From an uncultured delta proteobacterium (lineage in GTDB: Bacteria; Myxococcota_A; UBA9160; SMWR01), in NCBI GenBank assembly GCA_963832165.1, contig CAWHTE010000007.1:96001-160000 (forward strand): a stretch of 64,000 nt of DNA, written 5' to 3'. A program made the translations under genes and the position numbers. Below, piece after piece: positions 10,867-55,296 of this stretch. Numbering within the stretch: the stretch's first letter is position 1; each line of letters opens with the position of its first letter. The notes beneath the pieces were generated by a model. It saw nothing but the letters and a program-made list of their open reading frames with translations, was not told where the DNA came from and made no database searches.

Positions 10867-11730
10867 CTACCGACGGTTGGGGTCCTCGACTCCGTAGATC
10901 CGCGCCATCTGCTGCGATACGAGCGCGGTGACCGGCAGCGAGATCTCCGCGTCGCGCGCGAGTGCCAGCACACCCGCGAGATCCTTCTCGGCGATGATCA
11001 TGTGGTTGCGCATGAGCTTCTGCACGGGCTCCGACGTGCGGACCGCCTCGGGCAGCTTGACCCCGCCGAGGTAGTTGACCATCAGCTGCGTGAGCTGGCC
11101 GTTCGCCTGCCCGGCCTCCTCGAGCACCGACTGCGGCAGCCCGATCGCCTTCGCGAGCTGGAACGACTCGAACGCTGCGGCCCACTGGAGATAGGTGATC
11201 AGGTTGATGCAGAACTTGAGCTTCGCGCCGTCGCCGAGTGCGCCGGCGTGGATGATCTTCACCGAATTGCACTCGAACACGGGCCGCACCTTCTCGAGCG
11301 CGTCCGCGTCGCCGCCGACGATGTAGGTGATCTGCTTTGCCTTGGCGCGCTCCGCGCCGCCCGTGACGCACGCGTCGAGCACGGCCACGCCGAGCGGTTT
11401 CGCGGCCTCGGCGATCTCGATCGCGGTGGCGGGCAGGATCGTGCTGTGGATCGCGATCACGGCGCCCGGCTTCGCACCCGCGAGCACGCCGTCGTCGCCA
11501 TACACCACCGCGCGCACGTGTTCGTCGGCCGGTACGCAGATCCCGATCACGTCCGATCGCTCACCGACCTCGCGCGGCGACGACGCGGCGCGCGCTCCGC
11601 CTGCCACGAGCTCCTGCACGGGCTCCGGCGCGAGGTCGTAGACCGTGGTCTCGAATCCCGACGGCGCGAGATGCGCCGCGATCGGCTTGCCTTGGTTCCC
11701 CAACCCGATGAATCCGACGCGAAGCGACAT
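10867..11730 (-). CDS. NAD(P)-dependent oxidoreductase, 3-hydroxyisobutyrate dehydrogenase family (Rv0770-like)
   Basis: GFIGLGNQG; DACVTGG; K-x3-N (KFCIN); EKDL. Confidence 0.88.
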   Translation of the reverse strand: MSLRVGFIGLGNQGKPIAAHLAPSGFETTVYDLAPEPVQELVAGGARAASSPREVGERSDVIGICVPADEHVRAVVYGDDGVLAGAKPGAVIAIHSTILPATAIEIAEAAKPLGVAVLDACVTGGAERAKAKQITYIVGGDADALEKVRPVFECNSVKIIHAGALGDGAKLKFCINLITYLQWAAAFESFQLAKAIGLPQSVLEEAGQANGQLTQLMVNYLGGVKLPEAVRTSEPVQKLMRNHMIIAEKDLAGVLALARDAEISLPVTALVSQQMARIYGVEDPNRR

Positions 11731-11764
11731 CGCACACCTCCGAGCGATTCCACGGTATCACAGC

Positions 11765-11790
11765 TTACATTGCATCCGCTATGTAAATAG
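11765..11790. promoter_or_regulatory. Palindromic operator, copy 1
   Basis: TTACATTGCATCCGCTATGTAAATAG in a divergent intergenic region; 23/26 identical to 17980..18005. Confidence 0.8.
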
Positions 11791-11796
11791 TCTACC

Positions 11797-12576
11797 GTGC
11801 TGCGCGTGCAATCCCCCCGCACAGCGATCGTCACGGGCGCCTCGTCGGGCATCGGCGCCGCGACCGCCGTGGAGCTCGGCCGTGGCGGATGGCGCGTGGC
11901 GATCGGCGCGCGGCGCGTCGATCGGCTCGAGGGCGTGGCCAAGCAGGTCGAGGCCGAAGGCGGTGTGGCACTCGCGAAGCGCCTCGACGTGACCGATCCC
12001 GCATCGGTCGAGGAGTTCTGCACCGCCGTCGAGTCCGCGCTGGGCCCGATCGATCTGCTCGTGAACAACGCGGGGCAGAACATGTCGGCGCTGATCGCGG
12101 AGGCCACGACCGACCAGCTGCGCCTCGACGTCGAGGTGAACCTGCTCGGAGCGATGTACATGACCCGGCGCGTCGTACCGGGCATGATCGAGCGCCGCGT
12201 CGGCGACGTGATCTTCGTGGGCTCCGACGCCGCAATGCGGCCGCGAACGTTCCAGGGCGCCTACAACGCCGCGAAGGCGGGCCTCGAGGCGTTCGCGCGC
12301 GTGCTTGCGATGGAGACCGAGGGCACCGGCGTGCGCTCGATCCTCGTGCGCGTCGGCCCGACCTGGAGCGAGTTCAACAGCCAGATGCCGCACGCGCGCC
12401 TCCCCGAGATCCTGCAGAGCTGGAAGCACTGGGGAATTCTGCGCAGCCTGCACGCGATGCCGTCGGAGAGCGCCGCGCGCGCGATCGTGCGCGCCGTCTC
12501 TGCTCCCGTAGAGGAGTCGTACACCACCGTCATCGAGGTGCAGCCCGGCGGCCGCAGCAAGGAGTACGCGAAGTGA
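11797..12576 (+). CDS. SDR oxidoreductase (Rv0765c-like)
   Basis: TGASSGIG, YNAAK; GDVIFVGSD..R.R...GAY.AAKA and METEGTGVR resemble M. tuberculosis Rv0765c as recalled. Confidence 0.88.
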   Translation: MLRVQSPRTAIVTGASSGIGAATAVELGRGGWRVAIGARRVDRLEGVAKQVEAEGGVALAKRLDVTDPASVEEFCTAVESALGPIDLLVNNAGQNMSALIAEATTDQLRLDVEVNLLGAMYMTRRVVPGMIERRVGDVIFVGSDAAMRPRTFQGAYNAAKAGLEAFARVLAMETEGTGVRSILVRVGPTWSEFNSQMPHARLPEILQSWKHWGILRSLHAMPSESAARAIVRAVSAPVEESYTTVIEVQPGGRSKEYAK

Positions 12577-13328
12577 AGCTCGACGGAATCGAGGGCAAGG
12601 TCGCGATCGTCACGGGAGCGGGCGGCGGGATCGGCGAGGCGTACGCGACGGGGCTCGCAGCGCAAGGCGCCCGGGTAGTCGTCGCCGAGATCAAGAAGGA
12701 GAACGGCGAGCGCGTCGCCGAGGAGATCCGCCAGACCGGCGCCGAGGCGATCTTCGTCGAGGTCGACGTCGGGTCTCCCGCATCGACGCTCGCGCTGGCC
12801 GATCGCACCGTGGAGGCGTTCGGCGGCATCGACTTCCTCGTCAACAACGCCGCGATCTTCGGCGACATGAAGCTCGACTCGCTCCTGCGCGTGGACTGGG
12901 ACTACTACCAGCACTTCATGAACGTCAACATGAACGGCGCGCTCCTGTGCACGCGCGCGTGCTTCCGCTCGATGCGGGAGCGCGGTGGCGGCGCGATCGT
13001 GAATCAGTCCTCGACTGCATCGTGGATGGGCGCGGGCTACTACAGCCTCGCCAAGAACGGCATCAACGGGCTCACCCAGTGCCTCGCGCGCGAGCTCGGC
13101 CCGCAGAAGATCCGCGTGAACGCGATTGCGCCGGGTCCCACGGAGACGAGCGCGCTGCGCAGCACCGCGGGCGATTTCGCGAAGCAGCTCGTCGCGCAGC
13201 TGCCGCTCGCGCGCCTCGGACAGCCCGGAGACATGGTCGACGCGTGTCTCTTCCTGCTCTCCGACGCCGCGTCGTGGATCACGGGCCAGATCGTGAACGT
13301 CGACGGCGGTCAGATCTCCCGCCTCTAG
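12573..13328 (+). CDS. SDR oxidoreductase (Rv0769-like)
   Basis: TGAGGGIG; NNAAIFGDMKLD.LL.V..DYY..FM.VN, GAIVNQSST and SWITGQIVNVDGGQI closely resemble Rv0769 as recalled; GTGA overlap. Confidence 0.9.
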   Translation: MKLDGIEGKVAIVTGAGGGIGEAYATGLAAQGARVVVAEIKKENGERVAEEIRQTGAEAIFVEVDVGSPASTLALADRTVEAFGGIDFLVNNAAIFGDMKLDSLLRVDWDYYQHFMNVNMNGALLCTRACFRSMRERGGGAIVNQSSTASWMGAGYYSLAKNGINGLTQCLARELGPQKIRVNAIAPGPTETSALRSTAGDFAKQLVAQLPLARLGQPGDMVDACLFLLSDAASWITGQIVNVDGGQISRL

Positions 13329-13340
13329 AAAGGAAATGCC

Positions 13341-14819
13341 ATGGCACTCGCTCCGCTCGCACCCGAAACCCGCAACCTGATCGACGGCAAGCTCGCTACT
13401 GCCAGCAACGGCAACACGTTCGAGAACGTGAGCCCCTCCACCGAAGAGGTGCTCGGCACCGTCGCCGACGGCACCAAGGACGACATGCTGCGCGCGGTGA
13501 CCGCGGCGCGGCGCGCGTTCGACGAGACGAGCTGGTCGACCGACCACGCGTTCCGCGCGAAGTGCGTAAAGCAGCTCTACGAAGGGCTCAAGGCCGAGAA
13601 GGAGCAGTTCCGCTCGATCGTCGTGCACGAAGCGGGCGCGCCCGTGACGCTCACGAGCTACATGCACATCGACGATCCGATCGAGATGATGGCCTACTGG
13701 GCCGACAAGGCGGGCTCGTACGTGTACGAGCGGCGCATGAAGGACATCCCGTTCTTCGGGCGTGCGAATGGGCGCATCCTGCGGCGCGAGGCGACCGGCG
13801 TGGTCGGCGCGATCACGCCCTGGAACGTGCCGCTCTACCTGAACATCGCGAAGCTGGGTCCTGCGCTCGCGTCGGGCTGCACGATCGTGCTCAAGCCCGC
13901 GCCCGACACGCCGTGGTCGGCCACTCACATCGGCAAGGTGATCGCCGAGCACACCGAGATCCCGCCCGGCGTCGTCAACATCGTGGCGTCGTCCGACCAC
14001 CTCACGGGCGAGATCCTGTCGTCGGATCCGCGCATCGATCTCGTCACCTTCACTGGCTCGACCGCGACCGGGCGGCGCATCATGGAATGCGCATCGCCCA
14101 CGCTCAAGAAGGTGTTCCTCGAGCTCGGCGGCAAGTCGGCCAACATCGTGCTCGACGACGCCGACTTCGCCGCGGTGCTGCCGATGGGCGCAATGACCTG
14201 CGTGCACGGCGGCCAGGGCTGCGCGATCACCACACGTCTCCTGCTCCCGCGCTCGCGCTACGACGAAGGCCTCGCGATCCTCAAGGCCGCGTTCGAGAAC
14301 TGGAACTACGGCGACCCGACCAACCCGGCCAACCTCCAGGGGCCGCAGGTCTCGAAGCGCCAGCAGCAGCGCGTGCTCGGCTACCTCGAGAAGGGCAGGA
14401 AGGACGGTGCGCGCGTGCTGGTCGGAGGCGGCGCACCCAAGCACTTGTCGAAGGGCTTCTACGTCGAGCCGACCCTTTTCGTGGATGTCGACCCCGATAG
14501 TGCTATCGCGCAAGAAGAGATCTTCGGTCCGGTGCTCTGCGTGATTCCGTACGAGGACGACGACGACGCGGTGCGGATCGCCAACAACTCCGTGTACGGC
14601 CTGTCGGGCGCGGTCAGCTCGGGCAGCGAGGAGCGCGCGCTCGCGGTGGCGCGGCGCATCCGCACCGGCACGATCTCCGTGAACGGCGGGATGTGGTTCA
14701 ACGTCGACTCGCCGTTCGGCGGCTACAAGCAGAGCGGGCTCGGGCGCGAGAACGGCGAGATGGGGTTCGAGGAGTATCTCGAGACCAAGGTGATCGGCTG
14801 CTCGCCGCAGGGCTCGTGA
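13341..14819 (+). CDS. Aldehyde dehydrogenase (Rv0768/AldA-like)
   Basis: ITPWN, FTGST, LELGGKSA, catalytic Cys in HGGQGC, EEIFGP, PFGGYKQSG. Confidence 0.95.
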   Translation: MALAPLAPETRNLIDGKLATASNGNTFENVSPSTEEVLGTVADGTKDDMLRAVTAARRAFDETSWSTDHAFRAKCVKQLYEGLKAEKEQFRSIVVHEAGAPVTLTSYMHIDDPIEMMAYWADKAGSYVYERRMKDIPFFGRANGRILRREATGVVGAITPWNVPLYLNIAKLGPALASGCTIVLKPAPDTPWSATHIGKVIAEHTEIPPGVVNIVASSDHLTGEILSSDPRIDLVTFTGSTATGRRIMECASPTLKKVFLELGGKSANIVLDDADFAAVLPMGAMTCVHGGQGCAITTRLLLPRSRYDEGLAILKAAFENWNYGDPTNPANLQGPQVSKRQQQRVLGYLEKGRKDGARVLVGGGAPKHLSKGFYVEPTLFVDVDPDSAIAQEEIFGPVLCVIPYEDDDDAVRIANNSVYGLSGAVSSGSEERALAVARRIRTGTISVNGGMWFNVDSPFGGYKQSGLGRENGEMGFEEYLETKVIGCSPQGS

Positions 14820-17979: not shown

Positions 17980-18005
17980 TTACATTGCATCTGCAATGGA
18001 AATAG
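17980..18005. promoter_or_regulatory. Palindromic operator, copy 2
   Basis: TTACATTGCATCTGCAATGGAAATAG with core CATTGCA-TC-TGCAATG in a divergent intergenic region. Confidence 0.8.
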
Positions 18006-18034
18006 CGTTACCCTCCGTCCCAAAGGAGCGAACC

Positions 18035-19130
18035 ATGGCGAACCCCCAGGAGAGACCGCTGCGCGTGATCCAATGGTCGACCGGGAATGCGGGCAAGAAC
18101 GCGGTGCGCGGCATCGTGCGCCACCCCGACCTCGAGCTCGTGGGACTGCACGCGCACTCGAAGGAGAAGCAGGGCGTCGATGCCGCCGAGCTGTGCGGCC
18201 TGCCGAGCCCGACCGGCGTGCGCGCGACGAACGACGTCGACGCGCTGCTCGCGCTCGACGCCGACTGCGTCTGCTACATGGCGCAGGGCGAGACGCGGAT
18301 CCGCGAGACGATCGACGATCTCACGCGGATTCTGCGATCGGGCAAGAACGTCGTGAACACGTCGCTCGTGTCGCTCTGCTACCCCGTCGTTCTCTCCGAA
18401 GCTGCGCGACGCGCTGCAGAAGGCCTGCGAAGAGGGCGGCACCACCTTCTTCACCTCGGGCTTCGATCCGGGCTGGTCCGGCGACGTGATTCCGCTCGCA
18501 CTCGCGTCGACCTGCGAGCGCGTGGACTCGATCCGCGTCACCGAGTGCATGGACTACTCGACCTACGAAGACCCGGGGTTCACGGGCGTGTTCTTCGGCT
18601 ACGGACGTCCGCTCGACTACGACGCTCCCCTGCTGCGGCCCGGCATGCTCAAGGGCGGCTGGGGCTGCATGGTGCTCATGCTCGCCGATGCGCTCGGCGT
18701 CTCGCTCGACGAGATCCGCGAAGAGCACGAGCGGCTGCCCGCGCCCGAGACGTTCGAGACGCGCATGGGCAAGATCGAGAAAGGCACCTGCGCGGGCGTG
18801 CGCTTCGAGGTGCAGGGGATCGTCGATGGCAAGCCCGCGCTCGTGGCCGCGCACGTGAATCGGCTGCGCCAGGACATCGGGCCCGACTGGGAGCGCCTCT
18901 CGGGCAAGCGCCACTCGGGTTACAAGATCGCCGTGAAGGGCTCGCCGTCGCTCTACTGCGAGATCGAGCCGGTGGGCGAAGACGGCGACCACAACACGGC
19001 GGGGATCCTCGGCACCGCGATGCGCGTGGTGAACGCGATTCCGGCGGTGTGCGCGCATGCGCCCGGCGTCGTCTCGACGCTCGACCTCCCGATCTTCTCG
19101 GCGCGCGGAATCGGGGGCCGCGTGCGCTGA
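18035..19130 (+). pseudogene. DapB-like / 2,4-diaminopentanoate dehydrogenase-like NAD(P)H oxidoreductase with +1 frameshift at 18382-18385
   Basis: AAGGAG RBS; RVIQWSTGNAG Rossmann start; removing one C from TACCCCG joins CYP to SFSPKLRDALQKACEEGGTTFFTSGFDPGW; C-terminus TAMRVVNAIPAVC. Confidence 0.85.
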
Positions 19131-19505: not shown

Positions 19506-20849
19506 ATGCCCGCCCAGCCCGCTTCCCCGCCCCGCCCCACCCCCGTGAGCGGCGCCGTGCCCGGCCTCGGCCACACCGCCGAGTTCCTCGCCAACCCGGC
19601 GCTGTTCATGCTCCGCGCGTGGCGCGAGTGCGGTGAGCTCGCGGAGTTCGACCTCGGCGGCGTCCGCAACATCCTGATGGTCGGACCCGAGGCACACGAA
19701 GCGGTGTACCGCGCGCCCGAGGATCAGCTCTCCGCGGCCGAGCCCTACAAGTACATGGTCCCGGTGTTCGGCGAGGGGATCCAGTACGGCGCGCCGCTCG
19801 AGATCGAGCGACAACAGGTGAAGTTCCTGACCCACGCGCTGCGCCCCGACAAGATGAAGGGCTATGCGCGCGTGATCGCGCAGGAAGTGGAGGCCTGGAT
19901 CGCGAGCTGGGGCGACGAGGGCGAGCGCGACTTCTACGACGAGTTCAAGGAGCTCGTGCTGCGCACCTCCACGCACTGCCTGATGGGATCCGAGTTCCGC
20001 GCCAAGCTCACCGAGGAGTTCGGTGCGCTGTTCCACGACCTCGAGCAGGCGATCTCTCCGCAGGCGGTGCTCGACGCACACTCGCCCGACGAGGCATTCG
20101 CGAAGCGCGATCGCGCACGTGCGCGCCTGCAGGAGCTCTTGATGGAGTCGGTGCGCGCACGTCGACGCGTGGGTGGCGACCATCCCGACATGCTCGAGGT
20201 GTTCATGAACGCGCGCTACATCGACGGCAGCGCGCTCCCCGACGAGCTGATCCCGGGAATGGTGGTGTGGATCATGTTCGCGGGCTTCCACACGAGCTCG
20301 AACACGGCGAGCTGGACGGCCGTCGAGCTCGCGCGCAATCCGCAGTGGGTTCCTGCGATCGCGCACGAGATCGACACGGTGTACCGGCCCGGGGGCGATC
20401 TCTCGATCGCGGGGCTGCGCGAGCTGCCTGCGCTCGATCGATTCATCGCCGAGGTGCTGCGGCTGCACCCGCCGCTCGTGACGCTGATGCGCACGGTGAT
20501 GCGCGACTTCGAGTACAAGGGGAATGTGTTCCCGGCCGGCACCGTGCTGGCGATCTCGCCCTACGTCTCGCACCGCGTGCCCGAGGTGTTCCCGGATCCC
20601 GAGCGCTTCGACCCCACGCGCCCGGTTCCGAAGAGCGTGTTCGGCGCGATTCCGTTCGGCGGCGGTCGGCGCAAATGCGTCGGCAACGCGTTCGCGCTGC
20701 TCCAGGTGCAGTCGATCTTCTGTGCGCTGCTCGCGCGCTACCAGTTCGAGCCGGTCGACCCGCCCGAGAGCTACCGTGACGTAATGCCTTCGCTGATCCT
20801 GCGGCCGAGCGAGCCGTGCCTGCTGCGCTATCGCCGACGGAGTGCATGA
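19506..20849 (+). CDS. cyp51: Cytochrome P450 CYP51 family (sterol 14alpha-demethylase-like)
   Basis: YKYMVPVFGEG (SRS1), MFAGFHTSS (I-helix), EVLRLHPPL, PFGGGRRKCVG heme motif; C-terminal PPESYR...RYRRR as in mycobacterial CYP51. Confidence 0.88.
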   Translation: MPAQPASPPRPTPVSGAVPGLGHTAEFLANPALFMLRAWRECGELAEFDLGGVRNILMVGPEAHEAVYRAPEDQLSAAEPYKYMVPVFGEGIQYGAPLEIERQQVKFLTHALRPDKMKGYARVIAQEVEAWIASWGDEGERDFYDEFKELVLRTSTHCLMGSEFRAKLTEEFGALFHDLEQAISPQAVLDAHSPDEAFAKRDRARARLQELLMESVRARRRVGGDHPDMLEVFMNARYIDGSALPDELIPGMVVWIMFAGFHTSSNTASWTAVELARNPQWVPAIAHEIDTVYRPGGDLSIAGLRELPALDRFIAEVLRLHPPLVTLMRTVMRDFEYKGNVFPAGTVLAISPYVSHRVPEVFPDPERFDPTRPVPKSVFGAIPFGGGRRKCVGNAFALLQVQSIFCALLARYQFEPVDPPESYRDVMPSLILRPSEPCLLRYRRRSA

Positions 20850-21058
20850 CCATGCGAGTCGTCGTCGACCTCGACCTGTGTCAGGGACACGGCGTCTGCC
20901 AGAGCGAGGCGCCCGAGATCTTCCGCGTCGTCGATCGCCCGGGCGAGTACGCGCGCGTGGAGGTGATCCTCGAGCGGCCGCCCGAAGAGCTGCGCGTGCC
21001 GGCACAAGCCGCTGCGCGCTACTGCCCGAGCCGCGTGATCACGATCGTCGAGGACTGA
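20846..21058 (+). CDS. fdx: 3Fe-4S type ferredoxin
   Basis: CQGHGVC...CP motif (CxxHxxC); ATGA overlap with cyp51. Confidence 0.92.
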   Translation: MTMRVVVDLDLCQGHGVCQSEAPEIFRVVDRPGEYARVEVILERPPEELRVPAQAAARYCPSRVITIVED

Positions 21059-21065
21059 GGCGGCG

Positions 21066-21905
21066 TTGGCGCACGGCGAATCCGCGTGGTTCTCGCACAA
21101 TCCCGACAAGGCTTGGGCAGAGAAGCTCTTCCTGACCTTCATCCCCGTGTTCGTGATCTACAACGCGGTGATGCAGCAGATGGGCTGGCTCGACGCGGGC
21201 ACCTTCTGGCACGTGGTCCAGAACGCAGCGATGTGGCTGCCCTACTGCGTGCTGTTGCCCGCGTGGCTGCGGCGGAACAGCGATGTGCCGTGGACCAGCA
21301 GCTACTGGTTCAAGCTGAACGTGTACATGGCAGTCTGGGTGTTCTTCGCCACCTACTACCACACCGAGTACTTCTTCGAGCTGCTCGGCCTTCGCTACCG
21401 CTTCCCCGCCGTGCACGCCTACTTCGATTCGGCGCTGATCGGACCCGACGAGGCGACCGCCGCAGCTGAGTGGAAGAAGGTGCCCGTGGGCATGTATCTC
21501 AACTCGGTGGCGTTCTTCCTCGTCTACCACAGCGCCGCGGTCGTGTGCATGCGGCGCGTGCGGCGCTTCACGCTTCCCTGGAGCGCGGCGGCGCGACGCG
21601 CGGGCTGGGTCGCGATCGTCACCGCGACGGCGCTCTTCTTCGCGTGGGCGGAGACCTACCTCTACATCACCGACGATGCCGCCGCGAACGTCTGGTACGT
21701 CGATGTGAACGCGATGCTGCGCTTCGGCTCGTTCTTCTACGCGATGTACTTCATCGTGAGCTTCCCGAACGTATTCCGGCTCGACGAGGATCCGGGCGCG
21801 CCGCGTTGGACCCTCTCGCGCACGGTGATCGAGGCCTGCTTCGTCGCGATCGTGAGCATGACGCTGCTCGACTTCTGGGCGAGCTGGATCGGCCCGATCG
21901 CATGA
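21066..21905 (+). CDS. CPI1: Cycloeucalenol cycloisomerase / cyclopropylsterol isomerase homologue
   Basis: Colinear motifs with plant CPI1 as recalled: NPDKAWAE, YWFKLN, TYYHTEYFF.LLG.RY.FP, FLVYH, AET, FYAMYFIVSFP..FRLDE, W.LSR, LLDFW...GPI; polytopic membrane protein; TTG start. Confidence 0.85.
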   Translation: MAHGESAWFSHNPDKAWAEKLFLTFIPVFVIYNAVMQQMGWLDAGTFWHVVQNAAMWLPYCVLLPAWLRRNSDVPWTSSYWFKLNVYMAVWVFFATYYHTEYFFELLGLRYRFPAVHAYFDSALIGPDEATAAAEWKKVPVGMYLNSVAFFLVYHSAAVVCMRRVRRFTLPWSAAARRAGWVAIVTATALFFAWAETYLYITDDAAANVWYVDVNAMLRFGSFFYAMYFIVSFPNVFRLDEDPGAPRWTLSRTVIEACFVAIVSMTLLDFWASWIGPIA

Positions 21906-22924
21906 GGGTGCTCGTGACCGGCGCAACCGGGATGATCGGCTGCCACGCGGCGGCGGCGCTCGCCCGCGCGGGACACGAGGTGCGCGCGCTCGTGCGCGAT
22001 CCGCACAAGCTCGACCGCGTGATGGCTCCGTTCGGACTCGCGGGCGCGATCGAAGCGCGCTCGGGAGACGTCACCGACCCGGCGTCGGTTGGCGAGGCGC
22101 TGCGCGGCTGCGACGCTCTGATCCACAGCGCAGGACTGTTCTCGCACGCGCTCTCCGACGCGGCGCTGCTCCAGGCCGTGAACATGCGCGGCACCGAGAC
22201 CGTGCTGAGCGCGGGCTGCAAGGCGGGCCTCGCGCGGATCGTGTTCGTGTCGAGCGCGCTCGCGCTGTTTCCGCCGCCGGGTCCACTGATGCGCGCGTCC
22301 GACGCGGTGGCGAGCCCGGCGACGATGTACTCGGCGTGCAAGGCGGAGGCCGAGCGCTGCGCGCGCGCTCTCCAGGACGGCGGAGCACCGATCGTCACCG
22401 TCTATCCATTCTCGGTGCTCGGCCCGAACGATCCGACCGTCGGCAGCGGCCCGGGCGTGCTCGCGATGGGTCTGCGCGCGGGACACGTCCTCGTTACCGA
22501 GGGCGGGCTCGCCCACACCGACGTACGAGACCTCGCCGACCTGTTCGCCGCGCTCGTCGCCGCCGCCGACCCGCCCCCGCGCGTGATGGCGACCGCGGCG
22601 TTCGTCGCGCACGAGCGCTACTTCGAGCTGCTCGCGCAGCTGACCGGCCGCAGCGACCTCGTGGCCCAGCGCATCCCCGGCCGCGTGCTGCGCGCGCTCG
22701 GCCGCGCCGGAGATCTCGCGCAGCGCTGGCTCGGCCGCTCCCCGCAGCTCACCGGGGAGGCCGCCCAGATCCTCACGCGCAGCGTCCCGGTCGACGATCG
22801 CGAGGCACGCGCGCTGCTCGGCCGCGCGCCGACGGCGATCGAGGACTCACTGCGCGACACGATCGCCTGGATGGCCGCGACCGGCGTGATCCCGCCGCGC
22901 TGCGCCGGGCGCCTTTCCGTCTAG
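21902..22924 (+). CDS. Extended SDR, NAD-dependent epimerase/dehydratase / 3beta-HSD-like
   Basis: TGATGMIG, VSS, YSACK motifs; ATGA overlap. Confidence 0.85.
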   Translation: MRVLVTGATGMIGCHAAAALARAGHEVRALVRDPHKLDRVMAPFGLAGAIEARSGDVTDPASVGEALRGCDALIHSAGLFSHALSDAALLQAVNMRGTETVLSAGCKAGLARIVFVSSALALFPPPGPLMRASDAVASPATMYSACKAEAERCARALQDGGAPIVTVYPFSVLGPNDPTVGSGPGVLAMGLRAGHVLVTEGGLAHTDVRDLADLFAALVAAADPPPRVMATAAFVAHERYFELLAQLTGRSDLVAQRIPGRVLRALGRAGDLAQRWLGRSPQLTGEAAQILTRSVPVDDREARALLGRAPTAIEDSLRDTIAWMAATGVIPPRCAGRLSV

Positions 22925-23042: not shown

Positions 23043-24662
23043 ATGCACTTCCCCGATCTCTCCGATCCGCGCGACCGCACGCTGCATGGCGTGCTGCGCC
23101 GCCAGGCCGAGGCGAACCCCAACGCTACCTACCTGCACGTCGACGACGAGCGGATCTCCTACGCGGAGGTGCTCGCGCGCTCGAACGCGTGGGCTGCGGC
23201 GCTGCGCGAGCTCGGCGTCGCGCGCGGCGATTCGGTCGCGTTCCTGCTCAAGAGCAGCCCCGATTTCGTGTACGCGACCTTCGGCTGCCTCCAGCTCGGT
23301 GCGATCTGGATTCCCGTGAACGTCGACTATCGCGGCGCATGGCTGCGCGCGACGCTCGAGGACGCCGCCGCGCGCGTGCTCGTCGTCGACGCAGAGCTGG
23401 TGCCGCGCGTGGCGGAGGTCGCCACGGGCCTGCTCTTCGAGCGCGCGATCGTGCTCGGCGACGCGAGCGCGCGCAGCGCGCTGCCGTGGCCCGCGATCTC
23501 CGCCTCGGACATCGCGAGACGGGTCGGCAAGGTCGCGGCGCCGGAAGATCCCGGCACGGGCCCCGGCGACACCGCGTGCGTGCTCTGGACGTCGGGCACC
23601 ACGGGGCGCTCGAAGGGCGTGATGCAGAGCCACAACGTGTGGATCCGCGCCGCGCTCTCGGGGGCGCAGAACTCCGGGATTCGCGACGGAGACGTGCTCT
23701 ACGGCTGTCTGCCCATGTACAACTCGGCGGCCTGGGTGGCGCACGTGTACCGCGCGCTCGTGGCCGGGATTCCGGTCGGACTCGATCCGGCCTTCTCCGT
23801 GCAGACGTTCTGGGACCGCATCCGACACTACGGCGCGACGCAGATCTTCACGCTCGGCACCATGCACATCTACCTGTGGCAGGCGCCCGAACGCGCCGAC
23901 GACGCGCAGAACCCGGTGCGCCACGCAGGCTGCATTCCGATGCCCGATCAGCTCATCGACCCGTTCAAGAAGCGCTTCGGGATCGAGTCGCTCGACCAGG
24001 GCTACGGCCAGAGCGAGGTGCTCGGCTTGCTGCACCGCTACGACACGCTGCCGAGGAAGCCCGGCTCGCTCGGCCAGCCGCTACCGGGTCTCGAAGTGGC
24101 CCTGCTCGACGACGACGATCGGACCGTCGCGCCCGGTGGGGTGGGCGAGTTCTGCGTTCGGCCGACCGAGCCGAACACGATCTTCTCCGGCTATTGGAAC
24201 AACCCAGAGGCGACGGTCGCTGCGTGGCGCAACCTCTGGTACCACACGGGCGATCTCGGCCGGCGCGACGAGGATGGCGACTGGTTCTTCGTCGACCGCA
24301 AGAAGGACTACATCCGCCACAAGGGCCGCAACATGTCCTCGTTCGAGGTGGAGCGGACGTTCGCGGCGCACCCTGCCGTGTCGGAGGCTGCGGCGATCGG
24401 CATTCCCGACCCGAACCTCCCGAGCGAGGCCGAGCTCATGGTGTTCGTGAAGCTCAAGGAAGGAGCAAGCGTGACGCCGGCCGAGCTCGCGCGCTTCGTG
24501 AACGACAATGCACCCTACTTCTTCGTACCGCGCTATCTCGAGATCGCCGACGATCTGCCGCACACGCCGACCGGCCGCGTGCAGAAGTTCGCGCTGCGCG
24601 AGCGCGGCGTCGGGCCTGCGACGTGGGATCGCGTGGCCGCCGGATTCGAAGTGACGCGATGA
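23043..24662 (+). CDS. AMP-dependent acyl-CoA ligase (CaiC-like)
   Basis: WTSGTTGRSKG, GYGQSE, WYHTGD, DRKKD. Confidence 0.92.
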   Translation: MHFPDLSDPRDRTLHGVLRRQAEANPNATYLHVDDERISYAEVLARSNAWAAALRELGVARGDSVAFLLKSSPDFVYATFGCLQLGAIWIPVNVDYRGAWLRATLEDAAARVLVVDAELVPRVAEVATGLLFERAIVLGDASARSALPWPAISASDIARRVGKVAAPEDPGTGPGDTACVLWTSGTTGRSKGVMQSHNVWIRAALSGAQNSGIRDGDVLYGCLPMYNSAAWVAHVYRALVAGIPVGLDPAFSVQTFWDRIRHYGATQIFTLGTMHIYLWQAPERADDAQNPVRHAGCIPMPDQLIDPFKKRFGIESLDQGYGQSEVLGLLHRYDTLPRKPGSLGQPLPGLEVALLDDDDRTVAPGGVGEFCVRPTEPNTIFSGYWNNPEATVAAWRNLWYHTGDLGRRDEDGDWFFVDRKKDYIRHKGRNMSSFEVERTFAAHPAVSEAAAIGIPDPNLPSEAELMVFVKLKEGASVTPAELARFVNDNAPYFFVPRYLEIADDLPHTPTGRVQKFALRERGVGPATWDRVAAGFEVTR

Positions 24663-25510
24663 AGGAGCTCTTGCGCTGGCAGGTCGGCGACGTGCGGATC
24701 ACGCGCGTGCAGGAGCTCGAGGCACCCGACATCCGTTTCGTGCTCCGCGATGCGACGGTCGAGAACCTCGCCGAGATCGACTGGCTCGGACCGTTCCTGG
24801 CGCCGGGCGGCCATGCGCTCGCGTCGGTGCACACGCTGATCCTCGAGGTCGGCGAGCGGCGGATCGCCGTGGACACCTGCATCGGCAACGACAAGCCGCG
24901 CCCGATCCCGGCCTGGAGCATGCTCGAAGGCCCGTTCCTCGAGGATCTCGACAAGGCGGGCTTTGCACCGCCGTCGATCGACACGGTGATCTGCACACAT
25001 CTCCACATCGATCACGTGGGCTGGAACACGCGGCTCGTCGACGACCGGTGGGTTCCGACGTTCCCGAATGCGCGCTATCTGCTCGCGCGGTCCGAGTGGG
25101 AGCATTGGTCGGCCGACGCCAATCCGATCAACCAGACCGTGCTCGGCGATTCCGTGCGCCCGATCTTCGATGCGGGGCTCGTCGATCTCGTCGAGACGGA
25201 TCACGCGGTCGACGCCGCGGTGAGCCTCGAGCCGACGCCGGGACACACGCCCGGACACGTGTCGGTGCACGTGCGATCGCGCGGCGAGGAGGCCGTGATC
25301 ACCGGCGACCTCGTGCACCATCCCGCGCAGTTCGCGAGGCCGCACTGGGGCGCGCAGGTGGACTGGGACCGCGCACAGGCCGACCGCACGCGGCGCGAGT
25401 TCATGGCGCGTTATGCGGATACACCCGTGCTCGTGATCGGAACGCACTTCGCGGGGCCCACCGCGGGACGCCTCGTGCGCGACGGCGACGCGTACCGGCT
25501 CGACGTGTAG
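24659..25510 (+). CDS. Metallo-beta-lactamase fold hydrolase
   Basis: THLHIDHVGWN; PGHTPGH; GDLVHHP; ATGA overlap. Confidence 0.9.
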   Translation: MKELLRWQVGDVRITRVQELEAPDIRFVLRDATVENLAEIDWLGPFLAPGGHALASVHTLILEVGERRIAVDTCIGNDKPRPIPAWSMLEGPFLEDLDKAGFAPPSIDTVICTHLHIDHVGWNTRLVDDRWVPTFPNARYLLARSEWEHWSADANPINQTVLGDSVRPIFDAGLVDLVETDHAVDAAVSLEPTPGHTPGHVSVHVRSRGEEAVITGDLVHHPAQFARPHWGAQVDWDRAQADRTRREFMARYADTPVLVIGTHFAGPTAGRLVRDGDAYRLDV

Positions 25511-41804: not shown

Positions 41805-42272
41805 CTAGCAGGCGCCCGCGGTCTTGCGCCGCGCGCCCTTGCGCGGGGAGAGCACGGCGAATGCCCAACCCGCTCGCGTGTAGGGAACCAGGAACTGCGC
41901 CACGCGCCGCAGCGGCGCGGGCAGCGACGCGGGAACGCGCGAGCCCTCGCGGATCACGAACGCGCTCGCGTCGTGCGGGCGGCCCCGGGTCCAATACCGC
42001 GTGCGCGGCTGCGCGACCAGATTTCGCACCCAATCCGAGCGGTCGCCGCGAAACGTGGCCACGATCATGTGCCGGCCGATGCGCGTCGCCGCGAGCGGGT
42101 TGCGCCGTAGCTCGCCGCTCTTGCGGCCCACCGTCTCGAGCACGATGAACCCGCTCGGCGCGAGGCGCGGCGAGCCGAAGCCGCGTCGCACGATCGGCTC
42201 GACGACGCGGTTCAGCATCCGGAAGAACTCCACCTCGAGAGAGCGGCGACGCGCGACTGCGCGCTCAGCCAC
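41805..42272 (-). CDS. Deazaflavin-dependent nitroreductase (Ddn/F420H2 quinone reductase) family
   Basis: LETVGRKSGELRRNPL and DWVRNLVAQP motifs. Confidence 0.8.
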   Translation of the reverse strand: MAERAVARRRSLEVEFFRMLNRVVEPIVRRGFGSPRLAPSGFIVLETVGRKSGELRRNPLAATRIGRHMIVATFRGDRSDWVRNLVAQPRTRYWTRGRPHDASAFVIREGSRVPASLPAPLRRVAQFLVPYTRAGWAFAVLSPRKGARRKTAGAC

Positions 42273-42765
42273 CGCGCGCCGCCCGCAGATCGCCGCCGAA
42301 GAATACGCGCGCGCCGAGTACCGCGGGCGCGATCAGCCAGGGCAGATTGAACACCAGGTAGTAGAGCGTGTTGGGCGGCGGATGCGGACCCAGGAAGGTC
42401 TGCACGAAGTAGAAGAACATGTTGGTGACGGCGGCGCCCGCGTACACGAGACCGAGCGGCAACAGCCACGAGCGCAGCCCGACGAGGCCCACGATCACGA
42501 ACAGCAGCGCGGGCGCCGAGAAGAAACCGTCGAAGAGACACGCGGCGATCAGGTTCGGCGGCGGATCGAGGTGCGCCGGCTCTTCCGCGACTGCCCATTC
42601 ATGGAGCGATCGCAGCGGCGGCCACGGACTGTCGGGCGCCACGGGCACTCCGATGCCCTCGGGCAGGCTGAACAGGAAGCCGTAGAGCACCGAAACCGAG
42701 AAGAACAACGCCAGCGCCAGGTCGAGCGGGCGTCGGTAGATCGGCACGACGCTCGCGCGGGTCAC
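42265..42765 (-). CDS. EXPERA-domain (EBP/TMEM97/TM6SF-like) membrane protein
   Basis: Four TM; RRPLD start, acidic residue in LFDGFF.AP, C-terminal NLPWLIAP typical of EXPERA. Confidence 0.75.
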   Translation of the reverse strand: MTRASVVPIYRRPLDLALALFFSVSVLYGFLFSLPEGIGVPVAPDSPWPPLRSLHEWAVAEEPAHLDPPPNLIAACLFDGFFSAPALLFVIVGLVGLRSWLLPLGLVYAGAAVTNMFFYFVQTFLGPHPPPNTLYYLVFNLPWLIAPAVLGARVFFGGDLRAARGG

Positions 42766-53862: not shown

Positions 53863-55296
53863 CTAGCCGCCCGCCGCGCCGCGACCCGCGCGGCGTCCGA
53901 AGAACGTGCCATCTCCGAGCGACAGCCCGCTGCTGTACCCGCCCACCGAGAGGCCCGACGTGCTGCGGCCCGCCGCGAACAGACCCGGAATCGCATCGCC
54001 GTCGCCGTCGAGCACGCGGCCCTCCGTGTCGGTGTGGAGGCCCCCCAGCGTGAACGCGGCGTAGAGCGAGTTCTCGGTGGTGCAGTCGAACGCCCCGAAC
54101 GGAGGCAGGACGAGCGGAGTCACATAGCGCGGATCCTTGTGGAACACGGGGTCGCGGCCCGACTCCGCGTGGCGGTTGTAGAGCGCGAGCGTTGCGGCGA
54201 GGCTGCCGTCCGGCAAACCGAGCTCGCGCTCGAGCTCGGCGGGGGAGTCGCCCACGGCGGCCAGGCTCCGCTCATAGCTGGGCTGCTCGAACACCGCGTC
54301 GTCGACCACGAGCCAGGCACGACCGCCGCGATGCAGCAGCGCGAACTCGCCGAGCCGCCCGTAGTAGGCGTCTTCGTTCACGAAGCGCTGGCCCTGCGCG
54401 TCGACGAGCACGCCGCGCTTGAGACCCCAGGGCTGTGTCGCGGGTAGCGAGATCGAGACCGCATCCATGTGCAGCGTGGCCGCACCCGCAGCCATGCCGA
54501 GCTGGATGCCGGAGCCGTCGTCTCCCTCGGCGCCCACGCGCACACTGCAACGGCGTGCGAGCGGCGCATACGCTTCGAGCATCCGATCGTTGTGGATGAA
54601 GCCGCCCGTCGCAAGAACGACGCCGCGGCGCGCCCGCAGCGCGCGGTGCGCGCCGAACGTCTCCGCCACGACGCCGACGATCGCACCTGCGCCGTCCATC
54701 ACGAGGGCGCGGACGCGATGGTCCGGGGCGATGCGCGCGCGGCTCGCGGCCACGGCGGCGGTGAGCACGCGCATGAGCAGCGGGCCGGTCTGATGCTTCA
54801 TCTGAGGGACGTGACCGCGCGGAGCAGGCACGGCGATGTCGCGGTAGGGATGTGATTGCTCCGAGCCCGACCACACGAGACCGTCGTCGGTGGGCGGCTC
54901 GCCGCTGCAGCCTTCGTAGAAGACCGGCTTGAAAGGCACGCCCTGCGCGACGAGCCAGGCGTAGTGCTCGACCGACCCATCGCAGTACATGCGGATCTTC
55001 GCCTCGTCGGGCGATCGCCCGACCGACGCCATCAGGTACTTGAACATCTCGTCGGGCGAGTCCTCGAAGCCGCACGCCTTCTGGAGCGCCGTGCCCCCTC
55101 CCAGGTAGAGCACGCCACCGCTCATCGCCGACGTTCCACCGCCGCCGCTCGCGCGCTCGAGCACGAGCGTGTGCGCACCCTCTGCGGCGGCCTCGAGCGC
55201 CGCGGCTGCTCCCGCGGCACCCAGCCCCACCACCAGCACGTCGACTTCGTCGTCCCAACTTCCGACGTCGGCTGCGCGAACGATCCGGCTCGACAC
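53863..55296 (-). CDS. FAD-dependent oxidoreductase, 3-ketosteroid delta4(5alpha)-dehydrogenase-like (Rv1817-like)
   Basis: VVGLGAAG; YLGGGT..Q..CGFEDSP.EM.KYL; PAPRGH; RFVNED.Y; FTLGGL; GYSSG.SLGDG.FFGR. Confidence 0.85.
   Translation of the reverse strand: MSSRIVRAADVGSWDDEVDVLVVGLGAAGAAAALEAAAEGAHTLVLERASGGGGTSAMSGGVLYLGGGTALQKACGFEDSPDEMFKYLMASVGRSPDEAKIRMYCDGSVEHYAWLVAQGVPFKPVFYEGCSGEPPTDDGLVWSGSEQSHPYRDIAVPAPRGHVPQMKHQTGPLLMRVLTAAVAASRARIAPDHRVRALVMDGAGAIVGVVAETFGAHRALRARRGVVLATGGFIHNDRMLEAYAPLARRCSVRVGAEGDDGSGIQLGMAAGAATLHMDAVSISLPATQPWGLKRGVLVDAQGQRFVNEDAYYGRLGEFALLHRGGRAWLVVDDAVFEQPSYERSLAAVGDSPAELERELGLPDGSLAATLALYNRHAESGRDPVFHKDPRYVTPLVLPPFGAFDCTTENSLYAAFTLGGLHTDTEGRVLDGDGDAIPGLFAAGRSTSGLSVGGYSSGLSLGDGTFFGRRAGRGAAGG

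Follow-up and report, generated by a model that had tools for sequence, protein, structure and literature searches.

A bacterial operon joining divergent CYP51 and CPI1 homologs, a candidate catabolic module for cycloartane-type steroids

Four genes at positions 19506..22924 of a 64,000-nucleotide stretch from the genome of an uncultured delta proteobacterium (GTDB lineage Myxococcota_A, UBA9160, SMWR01; assembly GCA_963832165.1, contig CAWHTE010000007.1, positions 96,001 to 160,000; the whole stretch analyzed is called the window below) encode a divergent CYP51-family cytochrome P450 (CYP51a), a ferredoxin, a bacterial homolog of the plant cyclopropylsterol isomerase CPI1 (subfamily “A,” or CPI-A), and an extended short-chain dehydrogenase/reductase (SDR). 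On balance, we lean toward reading this operon as a catabolic entry module for 9β,19-cyclopropyl, 14α-methyl (cycloartane-type) steroids of plants or algae, in a degrader that makes no sterols of its own. Bacterial CPI and CYP51 enzymes are already known; what is probably new is the catabolic role and the two divergent subfamilies, and the operon itself is real, conserved, and probably catabolic.

In the scheme that we propose, the SDR would first keep or restore the 3β-hydroxyl group. CPI-A, judged by its homology to plant CPI1, would then protonate and open the cyclopropane to give a Δ8 steroid, and CYP51a, with its proton relay intact and with electrons from the ferredoxin, would oxidatively remove the 14α-methyl group. 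The product may then pass to an 8,14-sterol reductase and to side-chain and C/D-ring enzymes, the genes for which were observed elsewhere in the genome.

Operon structure and family assignments

All four reading frames lie on the + strand and are intact and closely joined, with the coordinates, the two ATGA overlaps (P450/ferredoxin and CPI-A/SDR), and the 7-bp ferredoxin/CPI-A gap that the first-pass annotation of this DNA had described. Its assignment of the P450 (19506..20849; 447 amino acids [aa]) to the CYP51 family was borne out: the best PDB match is Methylococcus capsulatus CYP51 (E 2e-120), the first non-CYP51 P450 follows at 2e-35, and the 56 best of the 60 matches listed are CYP51s or are placed among CYP51s. 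The CxxHxxC protein (20846..21058; 70 aa with a C-terminal CP) is, as had been stated, a ferredoxin; it has a single cluster, as do those that accompany bacterial CYP51s, and it matches M. capsulatus CYP51fx best, in the ferredoxin domain of that enzyme (E 4e-12). It is the presumed electron donor. A second ferredoxin, 82% identical to this one, lies behind an unrelated P450 on host contig C3 (775876-777358), and the host genome has 36 open reading frames with a P450 heme motif, at least five of them in the window.

CPI-A (21066..21905; 279 aa, TTG start) is a mostly helical membrane protein that matched no Pfam or NCBIfam family model. The colinearity with plant CPI1 that had been read from the sequence was recovered by searching, with 32% identity over 218 aa to XP_034926086, the cycloeucalenol cycloisomerase of Populus alba (pairwise E 2e-28); another plant-type sequence aligned along the whole length at 31% (283 columns). 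Many of the 367 homologs found carry the JGI label cycloeucalenol cycloisomerase, and the third ESM Atlas match is a plant CPI cluster at 0.90, a recognition just below the threshold of the tool. The structure model has eight helices (pLDDT 87); its best fold-search match, to a mycobacterial Insig homolog (Z 6.0, rmsd 4.0, 141 residues aligned), falls in the chance range for helical bundles and was discarded. Glu19, Thr100, and Asp269 line up with residues that plant-type sequences conserve, which we take to be the catalytic Glu, Thr, and Asp of CPI1 (E29, T113, and D260 in Arabidopsis). Among the 120 closest CPI-A homologs, Glu19, Thr or Ser at position 100, and Glu196 occur in all 120 and Asp269 in 111, with Glu in the other 9, and all of these positions are shared with plant-type CPI.

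The SDR (21902..22924; 340 aa) has the TGxxGxxG, Ser, and YxxxK elements and is the commonest partner of CPI-A; it may act as a 3-keto/3β-hydroxy oxidoreductase. No specific family cut-off was reached, the best NCBIfam model being HpnA at 128 bits (cut-off 368) and SdmB scoring 78 (cut-off 600). Only generic Pfam SDR families pass, with Epimerase above 3Beta_HSD, and the earlier description as 3β-HSD-like therefore holds only at the level of the extended SDR superfamily. Rieske proteins near CPI-A/CYP51a loci were considered as SdmA and ruled out, at 40 to 82 of 600 bits.

The order CYP51-ferredoxin-CPI recurs in 10 of 20 metagenome loci, and CPI-CYP51a-ferredoxin in one more, although several of these contigs are too short to judge and one locus (L197) looks like the same organism as another (L001); the recurrence argues that the operon is not a chance arrangement. 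The ferredoxin sits close behind CYP51a in most loci examined. The SDR immediately follows CPI in 5 of the 20 loci and stands directly behind CPI-A in 19 of the 24 other class genomes that have CPI-A. CPI-A and CYP51a share one locus in nine genomes, including two Parahaliea species, and the linkage recurs in Myxococcota and Gammaproteobacteria. Close relatives of the P450 are labeled Myxococcota, and named carriers of CPI-A also include Litorivivens lipolytica and Solimonas soli. The variable gene order, with the partners apart in many genomes, could be taken for a relic or a loose cluster of lipid enzymes without a common pathway. We regard this as very unlikely given four intact overlapping frames, dozens of invariant positions among 120 homologs, and linkage in two phyla. 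In locus L103 of a genome of the host genus (G218), CYP51a and the ferredoxin are followed by a short gene and a 430-aa neighbor, and both CPI and SDR are absent; the CPI-SDR pair thus behaves like a separable cassette.

Steroid degradation and sterol synthesis genes in CPI-A genomes

The host appears to degrade steroids. On contig C4 (469802-478975), genes resembling ipdA (E 2e-105 to 6CO6) and ipdB (1e-89) are clustered with three acyl-CoA dehydrogenase genes and with genes for a hydratase, a thiolase, an SDR, and a flavoprotein that score above cut-off for PRK07938, PRK07801, PRK07856, and PRK07121, respectively. We take 6CO6/6CON to be IpdAB and the PRK models to stand for individual C/D-ring cluster genes, and on that assumption the components of the C/D-ring (HIP) cluster, namely ipdAB, echA20, fadA6, and acyl-CoA dehydrogenases, are found together at this site. 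A side-chain cluster of the ChsH2/Ltp2 type is located on contig C1 (454332-459218), and PRK07798 ligases score above cut-off at three sites, one with an internal stop. The C/D-ring cluster is conserved in steroid degraders (PMC5380842). An IpdA match is present in 31 of 32 CPI-A carriers (25 of 25 in the class of the host and 6 of 7 others). Contig C1 also has, at 447667-450959, a soluble di-iron monooxygenase-like gene set that by eye has the appearance of a toluene monooxygenase.

The host also appears to make no sterols. Neither an oxidosqualene cyclase (OSC) nor a squalene epoxidase was found in its 5.5-Mb, 89% complete genome, the epoxidase having been sought with Pfam models and with an epoxidase-like domain query from a class relative; this is the genome-wide check that the first-pass annotation had proposed. 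The single triterpene cyclase is a DXDD-type squalene-hopene cyclase (SHC) in a hopanoid gene context. The SHC gene (C4, 294000-295954) is split by one frameshift near 294830, which may be a sequencing error, and the hopanoid cluster is otherwise ordinary. In our sample of 201 class genomes, CPI-A occurs in 25 and OSC-like genes in 11, with no genome having both, and the SDCTAE motif is present in all five of the OSC-like genes checked. No OSC was found in any of the 32 CPI-A genomes (the 25 of the class plus 7 further carriers, with G302 and G342 being one and the same and counted once), many of which are more than 90% complete, or in congeners of the host at 95 to 99% completeness. The OSC genes of class relatives (L172-L176) lie in frames of 1100 to 1250 aa that begin with a flavoprotein part resembling an epoxidase, possibly as fusions of squalene epoxidase and OSC or as tight overlaps.

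De novo synthesis via cycloartenol, with the osc and sqe genes in the unassembled part of the genome, would be compatible with 89% completeness and with OSC in 11 of 201 class genomes. CPI1 together with CYP51 has been reported as biosynthetic in Plesiocystis pacifica (Desmond and Gribaldo, PMC2817430) and in other myxobacteria (Hoshino and Gaucher, PMC8237579), although no assay of any bacterial CPI is described in the portions of these two papers covered here. Like the operon, these sterol producers combine a bacterial CPI1 homolog with CYP51; unlike it, they are described as having OSC. The CPIs of the four OSC-bearing myxobacteria in our set have His or Arg after the motif Thr and lie elsewhere in the tree, outside the Glu-motif clade described below, in genomes without an IpdA or KstD match. 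Together with the lack of any OSC match among CPI-A carriers and the near-complete congeners, this makes de novo synthesis the least probable explanation of all, and the catabolic, scavenging role that had been preferred over a biosynthetic one gains from the host gene clusters and from the carriers.

Active sites and candidate substrates

A tree of 31 CYP51s and an outgroup places CYP51a in a clade of 12 (support 98/99), separate from the second CYP51 of the host. His262, Thr263, and Glu180 are invariant in the 120 closest homologs, which are close kin at 66 to 92% identity, and the heme ligand Cys391 is present; the I-helix HT triad has been named as a CYP51 signature (PMC7947880). We mapped the cavity onto the residues listed for M. 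capsulatus CYP51 with lanosterol bound (PMC9519919, Table S2). Retained are Y79, M82, F86, Q102, G249, F256, P321, and L322, and most B′-helix residues are intact. V91, K99, and A253 are replaced by Gln93, Glu101, and Trp255 in every aligned member of the clade (11, 11, and 12 of 12) and in none of the 19 other CYP51s, while among the 120 closest homologs Gln occurs in 119 and Glu and Trp in all 120. K99 corresponds to M123 in Trypanosoma cruzi. H259 is Phe in 9 of the 12 clade members (Phe261 in the host), and the position of Y186, which binds the 3-OH in M. capsulatus CYP51 (PMC9519919), is aliphatic in all 12.

Helix C comes close to the side chain of the sterol, and the beginning of helix I shifts along with it (PMC9519919). 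The Gln, Glu, and Trp substitutions would thus be predicted to shorten and polarize the side-chain pocket, a reading taken from the alignment, since a single-sequence AlphaFold model reached pLDDT 36 and was left unused. CYP51a has Tyr at the position of I81/F105, where Phe accompanies a strict obtusifoliol preference in Trypanosoma brucei, which suggests a substrate without a 4β-methyl group. Because bulky or polar residues occupy small or apolar cavity positions while a normal CYP51 is also encoded in the genome, the substrate of CYP51a is probably in a different form, in the simplest case with its side chain already cut to a polar stub.

The normal CYP51 is encoded on contig C1 (759145-762733) in a cluster of a P450, the canonical CYP51 (E 6e-170 to 1E9X), an NTF2 protein, and a CMD-family gene, with no ferredoxin of its own. 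The NTF2 protein retains Y36, Y42, Y77, Y79, D132, and D135, which are spaced as published for the six residues that were tested in 8,14-Bsr. The cluster resembles the mycobacterial cyp51 region. It is the canonical host copy of the CYP51-ferredoxin-8,14-Bsr module of methanotrophs, Mycobacteriales, and uncultured myxobacteria (PMC13277303, PMC7947880). Like the operon, that module gives CYP51 a CxxHxxC ferredoxin of its own, in sterol degraders, and its flanking SDRs and aldehyde dehydrogenase have relatives in the window. CYP51a differs from that module by its separate clade, its Gln/Glu/Trp cavity, and the missing Tyr at the 3-OH-binding position 186. In degraders, CYP51 and 8,14-Bsr have been proposed to modify imported lanosterol, with CPI going unmentioned in the sections of that paper covered here (PMC13277303). 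The same paper cites a 1991 report on the microbial conversion of cycloartenol to C19 steroids and describes a Mycobacterium sp. that converts lanosterol to a C19 8(14) steroid. In genome G339, an 8,14-Bsr homolog directly precedes CYP51a.

CPI-A has diverged as well. Its motif is ATYYHTEYFF where plants have GNYFWTHYFF, with three conserved positions changed (G to A/C/V, W to H, and H to E): Gly is never present, and Trp-to-His and His-to-Glu are found in all 120 closest homologs, against G in 22, W in 20, and H in 23 of 23 plant-type rows. The changed motif leads us to class CPI-A as a homolog rather than as an ortholog of proven activity. The kept features are the Glu of the N-terminal region, the YxxTxYFF core, Glu196, and the C-terminal Asp; a 14-residue insertion, the identity of 31 to 32%, and the setting, an operon with a bacterial ferredoxin in a catabolic genome without OSC, set CPI-A apart from plant CPI1. 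Changing the motif Trp reportedly widens the substrate range. Glu-motif CPIs, comprising subfamily A and a subfamily “B,” form a clade of 37 rows (FastTree, support 95) apart from plant-type sequences. Subfamily B occurs in CYP51-(ferredoxin)-8,14-Bsr-CPI clusters of other Myxococcota, which likewise place CYP51 beside a Glu-type CPI; most of the genomes concerned also have IpdA and KstD-like genes. The CPIs in these clusters are ~38 to 45% identical to CPI-A, the CYP51 cavity is ordinary, and no extended SDR partner was present in the loci seen. In one genus with subfamily B (g53), 4 of 13 genomes have both OSC and IpdA, so that the split between Glu-motif CPI and OSC is not clean.

The best 120 of 745 matches to a subfamily-B CPI query include no named actinobacterial protein. 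The bacterial Glu-type clade also takes in a CPI from the thraustochytrid Hondaea fermentalgiana, and the fungus Gaeumannomyces hyphopodioides is listed as having a CPI-like protein (the two are entries P0139 and P0144), although fungi use the lanosterol route.

The plant counterparts of CPI-A and CYP51a, CPI1 (EC 5.5.1.9) and CYP51G1, are consecutive enzymes (10.1101/784272), and CYP51 normally requires that the cyclopropane be opened beforehand (PMC10968281). Cycloeucalenol and obtusifoliol had been put forward as the bacterial substrates. Given the divergent subfamilies, the fixed changes at substrate contacts, and the separate canonical CYP51, the true substrates may well be others. A tentative refinement, to which we give rather little weight, is that CPI-A and CYP51a form a matched, catabolism-specific pair for cycloartane steroids whose side chain is already trimmed to C19 or C22, from which the pair would open the cyclopropane and remove the 14-methyl group.

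Several observations weigh against a cycloartane entry module. The Gly lost from the CPI motif is reportedly important for activity. The CYP51 of Acanthamoeba can demethylate cycloeucalenol while the cyclopropane is still closed, so that the step order is not fixed; M. capsulatus CYP51 binds cycloartenol. The genes are also separable: of 38 genomes with CYP51a, 18 lack CPI-A (18 of the 176 class genomes without CPI-A), three gammaproteobacterial CPI-A carriers have no CYP51 match, and only 22 of 50 genomes carrying CPI-A or CYP51a yielded an 8,14-Bsr. CYP51a is present in 20 of the 25 class CPI-A genomes, and in pieces in two more. IpdA is common in the class regardless of CPI-A (157 of 201), and 20 of the 25 class carriers belong to one genus. 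Strong KstD-like matches (E <= 1e-150) occur in 1 of the 25 class CPI-A genomes versus 50 of 201 overall. Among the kstD, ksh, and hsa genes that had been suggested as markers of ring degradation, a KstD-like gene was not found in the host (best 96 bits, 25 to 32% identity to seven KstD-like queries, in a genome 89% complete), in five congeners, or in genome G283; the HsaA-like protein of the host reaches 184 bits, under cut-off, versus 400 to 414 in three other carriers. The HsaC-like protein (243 bits) is likewise under cut-off, and the sole KshA_C Rieske protein is weak. With no KstD found and a weak HsaA, the genes observed in the host do not make up a complete ring A/B route.

At the looser threshold of E <= 1e-120, KstD-like matches occur in 14 of the 25 class carriers, and all six gammaproteobacterial carriers have a strong one, in Parahaliea less than 4 kb from the P450. 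In the host genus, IpdA is present in the host and in five of five congeners and a KstD-like gene in none, while 68 of 201 class genomes have a KstD-like gene. IpdA without KstD suggests either a novel ring A/B route or cross-feeding on C/D-ring fragments. The absence of KstD had also raised the view that the host is not a steroid degrader, which the C/D-ring and side-chain clusters overturned.

The same gaps in KstD and HsaA, together with the frameshifted SHC and the use of 8(14)-sterols as membrane lipids in methanotrophs (PMC13277303), would fit imported sterols being remodeled for the membrane of the host, or detoxified, rather than serving as a carbon source. This seems improbable to us. 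The C/D-ring and side-chain clusters and the IpdA of nearly all carriers speak for degradation, the SHC frameshift may be a sequencing error, and a Trp-filled pocket would suit a full-length membrane sterol poorly.

A weightier alternative, unlikely but deserving attention, is that the chemistry or the substrate has changed: another polycyclic terpenoid or a steroidal alkaloid may be processed, a different cyclopropane bond broken, or CYP51a may be a hydroxylase. Oat CYP51H is a precedent for a CYP51 with changed chemistry. New functions have been suggested for some bacterial CYP51s (PMC7947880, section 13). Fixed substitutions in both predicted active sites, the canonical CYP51 and 8,14-Bsr kept separately in the host, the genomes with CYP51a alone, and the missing 8,14-Bsr in 19 of 21 genomes of one genus (g20) and in all six gammaproteobacteria are consistent with such a change. 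The intact His-Thr relay, Glu180, and most of the B′ helix, the 8,14-Bsr adjoining CYP51a in G339, the consecutive plant counterparts linked as a pair across two phyla, and neighbors related to the mycobacterial cyp51 region speak against it.

Neighboring genes and wider meaning

Downstream of the operon on the + strand, an acyl-CoA ligase (23043..24662; PRK06155-like, below cut-off) starts 118 bp past the SDR and is overlapped by an MBL-fold hydrolase gene (24659..25510). Both follow the operon as had been reported, but their linkage is weak: just one of the 20 metagenome loci has a close ligase ortholog in the vicinity of CPI-A, and the hydrolase accompanies CPI-A only in L001, so that neither belongs to the conserved core. 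Upstream, the C-terminal part of a 2,4-diaminopentanoate-dehydrogenase-like gene (18486..19130, + strand) is a recurring neighbor; it is frameshifted (window ~18000-19130), and contigs of relatives in two sequencing runs have one base fewer near 18382. At 10867..14819 (strand not assigned), 5 to 9 kb upstream of the operon, a HIBADH-like gene, a PRK07775-type SDR, a PRK07774 SDR, and an Rv0768-type aldehyde dehydrogenase are relatives of genes around mycobacterial cyp51. Their families also flank CPI/CYP51 in Parahaliea and in locus L070, and they probably belong to the same pathway as the operon.

A 430-aa protein without a Pfam or NCBIfam family recurs near CPI-A/CYP51a in loci L001 (3583-4884), L005, L006, L185, L197, L199, L200, and L216; in the host its gene lies away from the operon (C11, 741239-742534), and its ESM Atlas matches are unnamed actinobacterial clusters. 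Two further window genes are possibly steroid-related, an EXPERA/EBP-superfamily membrane protein (42265-42765) and a PRK07121 flavoprotein (53863-55296), presumably of the Δ4 5α-ketosteroid dehydrogenase type. No Rfam match was found in the 64-kb window, and a scan for promoter-like (none) and terminator-like (one) sites gave nothing above shuffled sequence. No CPI match was found in plasmid sequences. Four soil or rhizosphere sequencing runs contained only short pieces of relatives, one spanning the ferredoxin-CPI junction, which hints at such a habitat.

In the open-access literature we found no description of the operon, of a catabolic CPI, or of the CYP51a subfamily. Parahaliea mediterranea CYP51 is listed in Table 1 of PMC7947880, where the sections covered here do not comment on its pocket. 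More than 1000 bacteria that make no sterols keep CYP51, for reasons that are described as an open question (PMC7947880, PMC13277303). The locus ties CYP51 to a homolog of a cyclopropane-opening enzyme in OSC-free, steroid-catabolic genomes, and since cultured, harmless carriers exist (Parahaliea, Litorivivens, and Solimonas), the question of CYP51 retention becomes testable.

If the catabolic reading is true, it names genes for bacterial cycloartenol breakdown and would supply enzymes to turn cycloartanes of the rice-bran type into steroid building blocks. CPI1 and CYP51 matches in metagenomes would then be no proof of sterol synthesis, which bears on trees of eukaryotic sterol origin and on the reading of biomarkers. 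Should the pair act on shortened substrates, bacteria would have a dedicated pathway by which the founding plant and algal sterols are recycled. The CYP51 subfamily would then serve a substrate class of its own, new for CYP51, Glu in place of His in the CPI motif would be a mark of degraders, and the hosts without KstD would need an undescribed ring A/B route as well.

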